A stretch of 64,000 nucleotides of DNA, from assembly GCA_028534125.1 (NCBI GenBank), contig CM052816.1, positions 930,001 to 994,000 of the forward strand, in the 5' to 3' direction. The stretch is from Lama glama (Eukaryota). Position numbers and translations under genes: made by a program. This document shows, in pieces, positions 49,900-61,464 of the stretch (position 1 is its first letter; every line of letters begins with the position of its first letter). The notes beneath the pieces were generated by a model that did no database searches, was not told the DNA's origin, and saw only the letters and a list, made by a program, of their open reading frames with translations.

Positions 49900-50490
49900 T
49901 AAGAAAACTGGAACCTTCGCGGGGAGCTTCGCTGGCACGCCCCCAGAGCGCGCCACGACGAGCACTCAAACAGCGAACGAACAACCCTTCACCGGCGCCT
50001 ACGGCCTCGCAGCGCCCCACGGGTCACGTGCCCGCACGGGGCCATACCATCGAGTCAGTCCTCCAGCGTCCCAGAGAGGACTCGGAAGTGCCCCGGAGCC
50101 GGCTTCGGTTTTTCCGGCCGGGCCGTCCGCGCTTTTGTCCCGCCGGCGGCCGGGCTCCCGCGGCGCCGCCACAGCCAGTACGTGAGTCCGAGGCCGCCCG
50201 CGCTCCCGTACCCGGCCCTAGCCCGCCACGCCCTTTCCTTCTAGGCCGGGTCCTGGCTCCCCCTCGGGTCTCGGGCGGGATCTGGGAGGAAGTGTGCCCC
50301 GCTCCCCGTACACACCTCAGCGCGTTCCCGGGTAGTGGAAGGGAGGGAAGACCTCCGGCCGGCCGAGGGGTGTAGGGCGCGCCCCGGGATCGTATTGGGC
50401 CCCGAGATCTCCCGCTGTCCGAGGGGCCAGGGCCTGGCTGGGGCTGCCCGGTGTCTGGAGAAGGGCTAGGGCCCCGCCCCCGTGTTTCTC
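49900..50490 (+). promoter_or_regulatory. ZFP62: CpG-island promoter of ZFP62
   Basis: Dense CpG/GC; E-box GTCACGTG (50023-50030); ETS site CGGAAGTG (50083-50090). Confidence 0.85.
50095..50177 (+). other. ZFP62: ZFP62 exon 1 (5' UTR; its last base is the A of the ATG); 5' boundary approximate
   Basis: GCCGCCACAGCCA|GTACGT donor at 50178; joined to the acceptor at 58748 it gives GCCA-TG-TCA-CAT-TTG-AAG = MSHLK, the recalled ZFP62 N-terminus. Confidence 0.8.
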
Positions 50491-52578
50491 AACTACTCGC
50501 TGCTGTCTCGGGCAGGAGGGGAACCCTGAAAATGAGCGCTTTTAACTGAGCCACCATTTGTGCCCCCGTTGCGGTTAAGTTTGGCCCTGATATTTGAGAG
50601 TGAATACGAGAGTTGGGGGGGTCCCTGAGGGGTGATCTGATTCGCCCCCTCCCCCCACTTTTTTCTTTGATGGGGGAATGATGTTGAGAGACTCCTGCCT
50701 CAGGTGTGGATCGAGCCACCGGGAGGGGCTTTCCAGCCTTCGCCCTAGGGGAGCTCACGTGTTATACAGACCGGGGATCCGGAGCGCTGGCTCTACAAGA
50801 TGATCAGGAATTGACTAGGTAGGGAGAAGGTCGAGAGGCTCCTAGACCTGGGGACAGCCTGCGGGAACCCAGGCTTGAGGATGTGAAAGATGGCTGGGGC
50901 TGGGTGTGCTCCTCTAAGACGTTTGGAGTAGGTGGCCGCCAGGAGTGTTTACTTTTTGAAAGCACGAGGATTTTTTTAAAATAAATTTTTGAGTATGTAA
51001 TGTATTCATTCTTATGATTCAGATCTTAAAAATATGAAAAGCTGTCAGTGAAAAGGTTTTCTTCTGCCCATATTCCTAGGCCCAACCCCTCAGATCACCA
51101 ACCACATTTGTTAGTTTATTTGAATGTATGCTTCCAGAATTCCTTTGTGCAAACACTGGCAAATAGGAATGTTAGTGCCCCCTTTTTTCACATAGGTGGT
51201 AGGGTACTGTTCAAAGCTCTGCCGCTTGCTTCTTTTGCTTAATCTGTGTTAGAGATCATCAGAACACTAAGCGCTTTTTTTTTTTCTTTGCTGCTGCTGC
51301 TTTTTTAAAATATACTGCTGTGGTATTGGATTGAGCACTGTTGGATGTTTCATAATTTTTGGATCTATTCAGGGCATTTGGGTTGTTTCCATTTTTTTGT
51401 TACTTTAAACAATGATGTACGCAATGATGTGGTACTAGGGCATATCTGAGCAGGGTTTTTTAAAAGAAAGGATTAACCGTCATAAAAAAGTTGTTTTATG
51501 TTAACTCAGCCAGGTATTGCTACATTGTCAAATATGCCAAGTCATTATTATAATAACTCATATAGTGTTTAGAGAACAAATTAAACCAAGTAGCTTTTCT
51601 CTCCTGAGACTTGTGTTTATGATACTTAGCTTTACAGCAGCCTAATAAACTAGTTCTATTAATGATTCTCCTCAAGCCAATCTTTGCCCCTTTAGCTTCA
51701 GAAAAATCTCTCAGCCTCCCTTTCAGAATCTCCTTTGTTTACTTTATTCCTTAGGGTGACTAGAAATCTCTTCTCTACTACCAGGTATGAGAATGTTCTA
51801 TTTCATTTTTTATTTTAAGGAAAAATCACTCACCTTTAATCATAAGGATTAATCAATAGAACCAACTTATGTTAACCATTTGCAATTCTGATACTCATAA
51901 ACTAATTTAGTAATAACTAAAGCACAAACCATACTCTCTCTCTTGCCATCTGCATGTCACTTCTGTCACTCCTTAGTCCCATCTTTCATTTGTCCCATCC
52001 TCCCACTTCTTTCTTCTGAGTTGGTAAGGATTTTGTGTTCACATTTCCTCTTGTGTTCTCTTTTTCTTTCTTTGGGCACCTCCAAGTCCAGTATGATATC
52101 AAGAACTTAAGGCACAGAACCCAGATGGTAGACTGACTTGTGGAATATGGTCAGTACTCTGGAAATCCATAGTAGCTGCAGGCATGTTGCACCTGTTGCT
52201 TGTTGAAGTCTCTTGTTAAGGCAGGAATTTTCAGCCAGAGTGAGCCATAATTCCTCTTCTATGAGTTGTCTAATCTCTTGAGAAGTGGCTCCTGACTCCT
52301 GGGTAGGAACAGTAAGCGTTAAGGGCAGGTTCTTACTATCTCCCTGGGCTTTTCTAGACATTGGTGGTAGAATGTGAACAACCAGCATAGAGGTGCCCAG
52401 AGTTTCTGGGTCATGTGTAATTTGGAAGGAGTGGATGGTTATCTATGGCTGAAATTTTTAACTGATGTAACCATGCTTTTGGGTCATGCTTGCTTCCTGT
52501 TGAGAACTGGTTAAAGAGGAGTTTCCCCATCAACGTTGAGAACTTTTGAGAAATTAAACCCATCTGGCCCTCTCTCTA

Positions 52579-58747: not shown

Positions 58748-61464
58748 TGTCACATTTGAAGACGAGGGGCACTGAGGATGAGGAATCAACTGAAAAGTAT
58801 GAAAATACTGGAAATGCAGAATCTGTGTGGCTAAAAGTGGAAGGTCTTCACAAGGATCATATGCAGGAATCTAAGGTTGGTGAAACTTGTGATTGGGATA
58901 GCAAGGTAGAGGATCAGTTGGAAAAGCCTGAGGGAGAAAGAATGAAGGAAGACAAAAGTGGCATCAGGGAAAAGATTGGCAAAGCCAAGAATACAGCAAA
59001 TATAAAGACAGAACAGGAAGATGAGGCATCTGAGAAAAGCTTACATCTGAGCTCAAAACATACTGCACACCAGACTGTCCCTGTAGAACCGAAAAGCAGT
59101 GAACAGGGCAAGTGCATGGAGAGTGTTAATGGGAACTCTCACTCCAGTCTACAGCAGAAAACCGGTGCTGTTAAGAAGTCACATAAGTGTGATGAGTGTG
59201 GGAAATCCTTCAAATATAATTCCCGACTTGTTCAACATAAAATTATGCACACTGGTGAAAAACGTTACGAGTGTGATGACTGTGGAGGGACTTTCCGGAG
59301 CAGCTCGAGCCTTCGTGTCCACAAGCGGATCCATACTGGGGAGAAGCCGTACAAGTGTGAGGAATGTGGGAAAGCCTACATGTCCTACTCCAGCCTTGTA
59401 AACCACAAAAGCACCCATTCTGGGGAAAAGAACTGTAAGTGTGATGAGTGTGGAAAATCCTTCAATTATAGTTCTGTTTTGGATCAGCATAAGAGGATCC
59501 ACACTGGGGAGAAGCCCTATGAATGTGGCGAGTGTGGGAAGGCCTTCAGGAACAGCTCTGGTCTCAGAGTCCACAGAAGGATCCACACAGGCGAGAAGCC
59601 CTATGAATGTGACATCTGTGGGAAAACCTTCAGTAATAGCTCTGGCCTTAGAGTCCACAAAAGGATTCACACGGGGGAAAAGCCCTATGAATGTGACGAG
59701 TGTGGGAAGGCCTTCATTACCTGCAGAACACTTTTAAACCATAAAAGCATCCACTTTGGAGATAAACCTTATAAATGTGATGAGTGTGAGAAGTCATTTA
59801 ATTATAGTTCTCTCCTCATTCAGCATAAAGTCATCCACACTGGAGAGAAACCTTATGAATGTGATGAATGTGGAAAGGCTTTCAGGAACAGCTCAGGCCT
59901 TATAGTGCATAAAAGGATCCACACAGGAGAGAAACCTTACAAATGTGATGTCTGTGGCAAAGCATTCAGCTATAGCTCAGGCCTCGCCGTCCATAAAAGC
60001 ATTCATCCTGGTAAGAAAGCCCATGAATGTCAGGAGTGTGGAAAATCCTTCAGTTATAACTCACTTCTTCTTCAACATAAGACAATTCACACTGGGGAAA
60101 GACCTTATGTATGTGATGTGTGTGGAAAAACTTTCAGAAACAATTCAGGACTCAAGGTCCACAGGAGGCTCCATACCGGGGAAAAACCATATAAGTGTGA
60201 TGTGTGTGGAAAAGCCTATATCTCACGCTCTAGCCTTAAAAACCACAAAGGAATCCATCTTGGGGAGAAGCCCTATAAATGTACTTATTGTGAGAAATCC
60301 TTCAATTACAGCTCTGCCCTTGAACAGCATAAAAGAATCCATACAAGGGAGAAACCCTTTGGGTGTGATGAGTGTGGAAAAGCCTTCAGAAATAATTCAG
60401 GCCTTAAAGTACATAAACGAATCCACACTGGGGAGAGACCTTACAAATGTGAAGAATGTGGGAAAGCCTACATCTCACTCTCAAGCCTTATAAATCATAA
60501 AAGTGTACACCCTGGGGAAAAGCCCTATAAGTGTGATGAGTGTGAAAAAGCCTTTATCACATACCGAACCCTCATAAACCACAAAAAGATTCATCTTGGG
60601 GAGAAGCCCTACAAATGCGATGTGTGTGAGAAATCTTTTAATTACACCTCACTCCTTTCTCAACACAAAAGGGTCCACACTAGAGAGAAACCCTATGAAT
60701 GTGACAGGTGTGAGAAGGTCTTCAGAAACAACTCAAGCCTTAAAGTGCATAAAAGAATCCATACTGGTGAGAAGCCCTATGAATGTGATGTGTGTGGAAA
60801 AGCCTATATCTCACACTCGAGCCTTATTAACCATAAAAGTACCCACCCTGGCAAGACACCCTACACATGTGATGAGTGTGGGAAAGCTTTTTTCTCGAGC
60901 AGAACTCTCATAAGCCATAAAAGAGTCCACCTTGGGGAGAAACCCTTCAAGTGTGTCGAGTGTGGGAAGTCTTTCAGTTACAGCTCACTCCTTTCTCAGC
61001 ACAAGAGGATCCATACAGGGGAAAAGCCCTATATCTGTGACAGGTGTGGGAAGGCCTTCAGGAACAGCTCAGGCCTCACGGTGCATAAAAGGATCCACAC
61101 GGGCGAGAAGCCCTATAGGTGTGATGAGTGTGGGAAGGCGTACATCTCACACTCGAGTCTTATCAACCATAAAAGTATCCACAGTGGACAGCAGCCCTAT
61201 AATTGTGAGTGTGGGAAATCCTTCAATTATAGGTCAGTCCTTGACCAACACAGGAGGATCCACACAGGAAAGAAGCCATACCGATGTAATGAGTGTGGGA
61301 AGGCTTTCAATATCAGATCAAATCTCACCAAGCATAAAAGAACCCATACTGGAGAGGGACCTTTAAATGTGACAAATATGGGAAGCCACAGTGGCGCATC
61401 ACAGAAGAGAGCTCATGAGGGAGGGAATGCTCTGGATGGGACCAGGATGAGTGTGTCTCTGTAG
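58748..61464 (+). CDS. ZFP62: Zinc finger protein 62, main coding exon; 26 C2H2 fingers, no KRAB in the spliced product; 905 aa from the split ATG
   Basis: Acceptor [51 protein letters not shown] and [38 protein letters not shown] match recalled ZFP62; TAG at 61462-61464. Confidence 0.96.

Follow-up and report, generated by a model that had tools for sequence, protein, structure and literature searches.

In mammals, ZFP62 is one of the genes for which a conserved N-terminal extension has been described (Ivanov et al. 2011, NAR 39:4220, Supplementary Dataset 1, entry #32, NM_152283). The same work reported AUG at the relevant codon in cattle, pig, and mouse, as well as 5' variants carrying AUG and GUG in human and mouse. 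The human AUG form has a mass of 95.6 kDa versus 102.4 kDa for the GUG form, about 60 residues apart. A 2022 list places ZFP62 with those genes of the set whose 5' UTR is unlike the 2011 model and which have no annotated non-AUG proteoform. Our search of the CC-licensed PMC and bioRxiv literature for ZFP62 splicing, start codon, non-AUG initiation, or tandem donors found only Ivanov et al. (2011) and the Fedorova (2022) line.

Donor sites four nucleotides apart (A5E-delta4) are a preferred class of tandem donor, with 153 of 171 inferred human cases confirmed in RefSeq (Bortfeldt et al. 2008, BMC Genomics 9:202). In that study, splice-site scores track the major versus the minor form, and about 94% of the human 4-nt cases lie in coding sequence, where they shift the reading frame and often lead to NMD. 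The GYNGYN donors described by Hiller et al. (2006) and those of TassDB2 are related. Work on the choice between competing donors indicates that U1 defines the splice-site region roughly, whereas U5 and U6 fix cleavage 5 nt upstream of the +5G contact (Kramarek et al. 2024, NAR 52:5959). Initiation codons can themselves be interrupted, and the TOGA2 preprint describes a VAMP1 start codon split by an intron as AT|G.

We analysed a window of 64,000 nucleotides of Lama glama DNA (assembly GCA_028534125.1, contig CM052816.1, positions 930,001 to 994,000 of the forward strand), numbered here from its first letter. Judged from its sequence, this locus is the 5' end of a mammalian ZFP62 orthologue. 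A single exon carries matches to the Pfam families zf-H2C2_2 (E 3e-212, 24 stretches) and zf-C2H2 (E 3.1e-139, 19 stretches), and we counted 25 C2H2 fingers by a strict pattern and 27 by a relaxed one, close to the 26 given in a preliminary description of the locus. Compared by eye, rather than by computed alignment, with the human protein printed in the Ivanov supplement, the llama protein is nearly identical, the first fingers carry long identical runs, both N-terminal indels are multiples of three, and identity is 24/32 before M39 versus 23/33 after it, so that by this comparison the 37 codons before M39 appear as conserved as those that follow. A search with N-terminal residues 1-150 gave 74 candidates sharing words with the query, of which none reached E <= 0.001, in a protein collection that evidently lacks mammalian ZFP62. 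Among metagenomes searched for host DNA, a protein-pattern scan matched 67 stretches with no relative among them, and an exact 19-base scan found four loci, chance matches with nothing similar beyond the 19 bases. Among 24 sequencing runs surveyed, 19 contain the stretch in whole or in part, and none of these is recorded as RNA.

Table 1. Features of the ZFP62 5' region in the llama window.
Feature	Position	Strand	Remarks
CpG island, presumed promoter around exon 1	49950..50550	.	GC 0.702, CpG observed/expected 0.91; promoter function presumed
Putative non-coding exon 1, 3' part	50090..50177	+	Ends GCCGCCACAGCCA; start coordinate is a guess
Candidate donor 1, CCA|GTACGT	50178..50183	+	A + TG would give AUG; PWM -0.06 bits, U1 duplex -2.2 kcal/mol
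Candidate donor 2, TAC|GTGAGT, 4 nt 3' of donor 1	50182..50187	+	C + TG would give CUG at the same codon; PWM 1.96 bits, U1 duplex -5.8 kcal/mol
Putative intron body	50188..58725	+	Intron length 8570 nt with donor 1 and 8566 nt with donor 2; may contain intermediate exons
Polypyrimidine tract and acceptor AG (58746-47)	58726..58747	+	15/19 pyrimidines at -21..-3
Coding part of large (2.7-kb) exon: TG + 904 codons + stop	58748..61464	+	Open reading frame, Pfam, finger pattern; ZFP62 orthologue
Out-of-frame (+1) 18-codon ORF	58778..58834	+	ATGs at 58778, 58799, 58814; shared TAA 58832-34
In-frame ATG, Met39	58861..58863	+	gatcatATGc, weak context (C at both -3 and +4); 867 codons
In-frame ATG, Met66	58942..58944	+	A at -3; 840 codons

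The start codon of llama ZFP62 seems to take its first letter from an upstream exon. The coding exon opens with TG directly after the acceptor AG, followed in the frame of the ORF by TCA CAT TTG AAG. That frame is open from 58690 to a stop at 61462-64 and encodes 904 residues (SHLK...), or 905 with an initiating methionine, and its first AUG within the coding exon is codon 39. Far upstream, a putative CpG-island exon without AUG ends ...GCCACAGCCA, and GT (50178-79), AC (50180-81), and GTGAGT (50182-87) follow. The final A of this putative exon, at 50177, is a potential first base of the start codon, and no ATG occurs in the 370 nt 5' of the donor (49808-50177), where the first in-frame stop upstream is at 49892. 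We infer both 50177 as the exon end and cleavage at either GT from the sequence. When re-read, the letters at 50165-50187 and the opening of the coding exon proved to be as the preliminary description had them, as did the 905-residue product of the A|TG junction and its purine at -3, which is G; U occupies +4. GC content reaches 0.724 over 50000-50499 within the island; CGGAAGT at 50083 is ETS-like, and CACGTG at 50025 is an E-box. A single weak tandem repeat (55142-55179) was detected in the intron body. We found no retrocopy in the genome that keeps a junction: the exon-1 probe matched itself alone, and the coding-exon probe gave its self-match plus one 39-base internal repeat, with no junction-preserving processed pseudogene.

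The two GTs, 4 nt apart at one putative exon end and each a plausible 5' splice site, form a candidate A5E-delta4 arrangement. Both have G at +5 and donor 1 also has U at +6, while donor 1 departs from consensus at -2, -1, and +4 and, being weak by sequence, may therefore be little used. Donor 2 is nearer to consensus, as previously proposed, and ranks first, with donor 1 second, among the 39 GTs in 49950-50700 by U1 pairing and a crude PWM built from textbook frequencies rather than by MaxEntScan. The double-donor motif is common and is notable solely for its position: GTNNGTRAGT occurs 14 times in the window versus 2.77 expected, none of 100 shuffles reaches 14, and five of the 14 occurrences sit in a single GTAA microsatellite. 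The fold of the RNA near the donors was unremarkable, with an MFE of -39.3 kcal/mol versus a shuffle mean of -41.0 (z 0.55) and 140 of 200 shuffles folding at least as well.

Downstream of the junction, the preliminary description had ribosomes scanning past a CUG to the in-frame ATG at 58861. That ATG does lie in poor context and would open 867 codons, but the proposal overlooked the 18-codon out-of-frame ORF with three AUGs that sits between the junction and 58861 and ends 26 nt before it. This ORF would serve as a uORF only where an mRNA does not carry the spliced AUG. The printed human sequence has Ile in place of M39, and the conserved downstream methionine is that at 58942; the 867-residue form would therefore be lineage-specific. 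Met66 corresponds to the AUG taken in 2011 as the annotated start of human NM_152283. A GCC-rich element of the kind that enhances near-cognate initiation (GCCGCC-R-NN-XXX-G, register -9 to -3) is out of register for both junction codons, and the CUG of the donor-2 mRNA would have G at -3 and U at +4.

We suggest, with about an even chance of being right, that llama ZFP62 has a split AUG with a 4-nt tandem donor, in which the downstream donor mostly yields a low-output variant and does not select the N-terminus. The full-length 905-residue protein would require the upstream exon to donate its first base. Splicing at 50178 would donate A and create the first AUG of the mRNA in fair context, with G at -3, while the overlapping GT at 50182, with its better U1 match and G at +5, could compete as a 4-nt tandem donor and would donate C, placing CUG where AUG would otherwise stand. 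Initiation at this CUG would be expected to be weak, given U at +4 and no in-register GCC-type enhancer, and most ribosomes scanning the CUG mRNA would encounter the three out-of-frame AUGs before the weak in-frame site at 58861. Initiator tRNA (Met-tRNAi) decodes near-cognate start codons as methionine, so a CUG start would give the same protein and donor choice would mainly alter yield rather than the N-terminus. The earlier proposal that a 4-nt shift sets both output and N-terminus may thus hold for yield, which would change, and not for the N-terminus, since a CUG start would lead to the same 905-residue protein. As commonly happens where tandem donors lie 4 nt apart, both junctions probably form in some proportion, and the 2011 record of AUG and of AUG and GUG variants at this codon makes a splice-completed start of AUG or a near-cognate credible for ZFP62.

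How the donors are used could differ from this reading in either direction. Cleavage might occur at donor 1 alone, with GTGAGT merely recruiting U1 and U5/U6 setting the upstream GU, so that neither a CUG mRNA nor, by this route, a short isoform would arise. Such constitutive use would fit the tandem donor studied by Kramarek et al. (2024), in which the position of U1 did not dictate cleavage, as well as the G at +5 and U at +6 that U6 requires, the Kozak-like exon end in which GCCACAGCC precedes the A, and the AUG that Ivanov et al. (2011) give for this codon in cattle, pig, and mouse. However, donor 2 is better by both PWM and U1 pairing, and scores in 4-nt tandem donors correlate with the major form (Bortfeldt et al. 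2008). We hold exclusive use of donor 1 to be unlikely, though the likeliest of the alternatives. The same scores (rank 1 of 39; U1 duplex -5.8 versus -2.2 kcal/mol) could instead mean that splicing uses donor 2 mainly or exclusively, in which case most ZFP62 mRNA would carry CUG and near-cognate initiation would produce the conserved N-terminus, the mechanism proposed for the human GUG transcript. The place of ZFP62 among candidates for conserved non-AUG extensions (Ivanov et al. 2011) agrees with this, yet we regard it as improbable: the CUG context is poor, GCCGCC-R lies outside the enhancer register of -9 to -3, three out-of-frame AUGs follow, and the 2022 listing gives ZFP62 a different 5' UTR from the 2011 model and no annotated non-AUG proteoform.

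The exon boundary itself may lie elsewhere, with the coding exon joined to a different exon or donor within the island or the intron, which would make CCA|GTAC|GTGAGT incidental. Across the window, the two GTs are only moderate (194th and 477th among 3324 + strand sites by the crude PWM), further island GTs also end in A or G (50292, GAA|GT, could give A, and 50332, CGG|GT, could give G), and the printed human mRNA joins another leader (...CTAG) to the same TG. The human GUG variant has this different exon end and not a 4-nt shift; the variation may really come from alternative 5' exons instead of tandem donors. Against this, no other GT among the 39 in the island ranks above these two, the Kozak-like exon end suits a start codon there, and the printed human leader opens with the donor-2 hexamer GTGAGT and has short collinear words in common with 50182-50345 (by eye, not computed), so that the human exon-1/intron boundary would fall at the same spot; we consider a boundary elsewhere quite improbable. 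We attach least probability to a regulated and conserved donor ratio acting as a switch on both output and N-terminus. AUG and near-cognate variants recur at this codon in human and mouse, and such a duality could be maintained, but the RNA around the donors folds no better than its shuffles, a CUG start would leave the N-terminus unchanged, human ZFP62 lacks M39, and the double-donor motif is frequent by chance. A regulatory switch is thus not supported.

If both donors are used, as in the split-AUG reading that we prefer, llama ZFP62 would be a compact case in which a 4-nt splice shift alters the identity of the start codon and not the reading frame, linking within one gene tandem donor choice and near-cognate initiation, both of them well studied and prone to noise. 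Homology-guided gene models always choose the AUG-forming donor, even if a stronger neighbor is mostly used, and in that event protein output predicted from mRNA level could be wrong. A far-reaching extension, to which we give little credence, is that mammalian ZFP62 deliberately keeps a split start, with the choice of exon end tuning translation between AUG and CUG or GUG and the cluster of out-of-frame AUGs serving as a trap that nearly silences the AUG-less form. It is similarly doubtful that, within such a mammal-wide scheme, the 4-nt tandem donor plays this part in llama and other 5' variants do so in human and mouse.

The preliminary description knew of no account of this start as a regulatory switch, which is not quite right because Ivanov et al. 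(2011) noted AUG and near-cognate ZFP62 variants; neither a 4-nt tandem donor nor a switch had been described, and the llama arrangement read here from the genome is a candidate. It shares gene and codon with those variants, and would resemble them in drawing the base before TG from an upstream exon and in having AUG or a near-cognate according to transcript. It differs in that their near-cognate is GUG, supplied by a leader ending ...CTAG|TG with neither a 4-nt tandem donor nor a proposed switch, whereas the alternative here would be CUG through a 4-nt donor shift. The locus is like other A5E-delta4 donors in that its GTs are 4 nt apart, the GT at +5/+6 of the upstream site forms a second candidate donor, and one U1 region is shared, but unlike the frame-shifting cases its 4 nt fall right at the border of the 5' leader, and the shift would thus alter the start codon in its first base. 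STAT3 exon 21 (Kramarek et al. 2024) likewise has competing GUs within one U1 landing site, between which U5/U6 choose later; its spacing is 3 nt, in frame within coding sequence, and experimentally established, whereas the ZFP62 donors are predicted from sequence. In VAMP1, too, the initiation codon is assembled only in spliced mRNA, although it is split after two bases rather than after one as predicted for ZFP62, and the preprint's passage on it reports no alternative donor. Taken against these systems, whose general phenomenon is already published, llama ZFP62 is a plausible and modestly interesting case of known kinds.

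No ATG in frame with the large ZFP62 exon precedes codon 39, either in the coding exon or in the stretch 5' of its acceptor. Translation of the 37 codons from the acceptor to Met39 is indicated by several lines of evidence. By eye, 24 of 32 aligned N-terminal residues match the human sequence printed in the supplement of Ivanov et al. 2011 (entry #32), followed by 23 of 33 in the next stretch, and the two length differences are whole codons (one and four), so that the frame is kept. From human and mouse, Ivanov et al. 2011 likewise concluded that the N-terminal extension is translated, and the human mRNA they print has a leader ending in ...CTAG joined to the same TG, so the first base of codon 1 is supplied by an upstream exon in human too. 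Together, the conserved extension and the human leader junction make a splice-completed codon 1 the expected structure of ZFP62.

The protein encoded by the open frame is of the poly-C2H2 zinc-finger kind, matching Pfam families zf-H2C2_2 (E 3e-212) and zf-C2H2 (E 3.1e-139), with 25 fingers by a strict pattern and 27 by a relaxed one, collinear with printed human ZFP62 and identical over long runs in a by-eye comparison. The TCA frame holds 904 codons after TG, which gives 905 residues if A precedes TG, and 15 of the 19 positions from -21 to -3 of the acceptor tract are pyrimidines. Read directly, the letters at the exon-1 end and the coding-exon start are exactly those of the preliminary description, which overlooked an out-of-frame uORF before 58861. 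ATG is absent from 49808-50177. An ETS-like site and a palindromic E-box lie just 5' of the putative exon-1 end; both are typical for CpG-island promoters and suggest that the leader is probably short, under ~100 nt.

Features of the ZFP62 locus and its surroundings (window positions)
Feature	Position	Strand	Details
Intact olfactory-receptor open frame	10417-11472	+	351 codons; Pfam 7tm_4 E 3.3e-51, 7tm_1 E 8.2e-36
GTAA microsatellite	15309-15334	+	
Run of N	16121-16620		exactly 500
Second GC-rich block	18000-19000		GC 0.71 and 0.63
Open frame of GC-rich block	17698-18615	+	
Open frame of GC-rich block	18098-18793	-	
CpG island	49950-50550		GC 0.70, CpG obs/exp 0.91
E-box	50025-50030		CACGTG
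ETS-like site	50083-50089		CGGAAGT
Putative exon-1 end	50165-50177		GCCGCCACAGCCA; then GT 50178-50179, AC 50180-50181, GTGAGT 50182-50187
Donor 1 (AUG-forming), CCA/GTACGT	50178		PWM -0.06 bits; U1 duplex -2.2 kcal/mol; rank 2/39 GTs in 49950-50700, 477/3324 + strand GTs
Donor 2 (CUG-forming), TAC/GTGAGT	50182		PWM 1.96 bits; U1 duplex -5.8 kcal/mol; rank 1/39 GTs in 49950-50700, 194/3324 + strand GTs
Acceptor AG	58746-58747		TG TCA CAT TTG AAG directly 3'
TCA reading frame	58690 to stop 61462-61464		open
Out-of-frame ATGs	58778, 58799, 58814	+	A, A and G at -3; common 18-codon frame, end 58832-58834
In-frame ATG (Met39)	58861		C at -3, C at +4
Downstream Met common to human	58942		840 codons

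The two candidate donors were scored with a position-weight matrix (PWM) built from textbook frequencies and with U1 duplex energies, values distinct from MaxEntScan scores. Both are the top candidates locally and merely moderate across the window, and donor 2 is the stronger on either measure, as had been proposed. In each, position +5 is G and position +6 is U, the bases that U6 contacts when it sets the cleavage site (Kramarek et al. 2024), and the local RNA fold around them is unremarkable (z 0.55). Matches to GTNNGTRAGT as such are not rare (14 in the window vs 2.77 expected), and the meaning of the motif rests on position only. Five of these matches fall within the GTAA microsatellite.

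Use of donor 1 would give an mRNA reading ...GCCACAGCC-AUG-U, in which this AUG is the first and has G at -3, bearing out the purine claimed for that position. With donor 2, codon 1 would be CUG in a context of G at -3 but U at +4. Because initiator Met-tRNA also decodes near-cognate starts, a CUG start would yield the same 905-aa protein in smaller amount, which contradicts the earlier proposal that the 4-nt shift sets the N-terminus. The near-cognate-start enhancer described in 2026 (GCC-rich, GCCGCC-R at -9 to -3) is out of register for the donor-2 CUG.

That proposal had ribosomes scan on to 58861, and the in-frame ATG there is indeed weak in context, but scanning to it is not free, since three out-of-frame ATGs come first. 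Their common frame stops 26 nt 5' of it, and to make an 867-aa product, ribosomes would have to scan leakily past all three or reinitiate across a very short gap, both inefficient processes. Moreover, the Met39 position is Ile in the printed human sequence, and it is the shared Met at 58942 that fits the supplement's figures of 95.6 vs 102.4 kDa. The same three out-of-frame ATGs, which all fall within 70 nt of the coding-exon start, occur, by eye, at matching places in the printed human mRNA, where the +1 frame is longer; they may be a mere by-product of conserved acidic codons or may contribute to low AUG-less output. The most likely outcome of donor 2 would be reduced output rather than a new N-terminus. 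The sequence is best explained, at roughly even chances, by a split AUG and a second donor 4 nt away whose competition would mainly reduce yield; a regulated switch by donor choice is improbable. The preliminary interpretation is partly upheld: a splice-completed codon 1 is expected and a new N-terminus is not.

By eye, the donor-2 hexamer GTGAGT also opens the printed human leader, which has a few short collinear words in common with 50182-50345. By this comparison, the human exon-1 boundary would lie at the same spot, and the human GUG form would be an exon-1 extension. A protein homology search found no orthologue from another mammal, two metagenome scans found nothing related, and a retrocopy of ZFP62 is absent from the genome.

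Elsewhere in the window, the olfactory-receptor open frame lies ~40 kb upstream of ZFP62 exon 1 and fits the olfactory-receptor neighbours that ZFP62 presumably has in human. The run of N is an assembly gap or a withheld stretch, and it is the reason that 'ORFs' open in all frames cluster at 15882-16762. The second GC-rich block has long open frames on both strands; Pfam gave no match for any of those tested, and the block may be another CpG island or the first exon of a neighbouring gene.

In CC-licensed PMC and bioRxiv literature, with many supplements unsearchable, we found no account of a 4-nt donor shift that alters base 1 of a start codon, for ZFP62 or in general. The preliminary view that no description as a switch was known needs qualifying, since the AUG/near-cognate duality had been noted: Ivanov et al. 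2011 flagged ZFP62 for 5' variants at exactly codon 1. The listed Ivanov genes with a 5' UTR unlike the 2011 model and no annotated non-AUG proteoform included ZFP62 by 2022 (supplement sheet 'Ivanov et al diff_utr'). The arrangement would combine three known things, namely a split start codon, a 4-nt tandem donor and a gene flagged for codon-1 variants. Split start codons are already known, for example in VAMP1. The ZFP62 GT pair has the spacing of the tandem donors of Bortfeldt et al. 2008, who found 4 nt to be preferred (171 inferred in human, 153 RefSeq-confirmed), with scores following the major and minor forms; ~94% of theirs lie in coding sequence, and the ZFP62 pair occupies the rare non-coding location.
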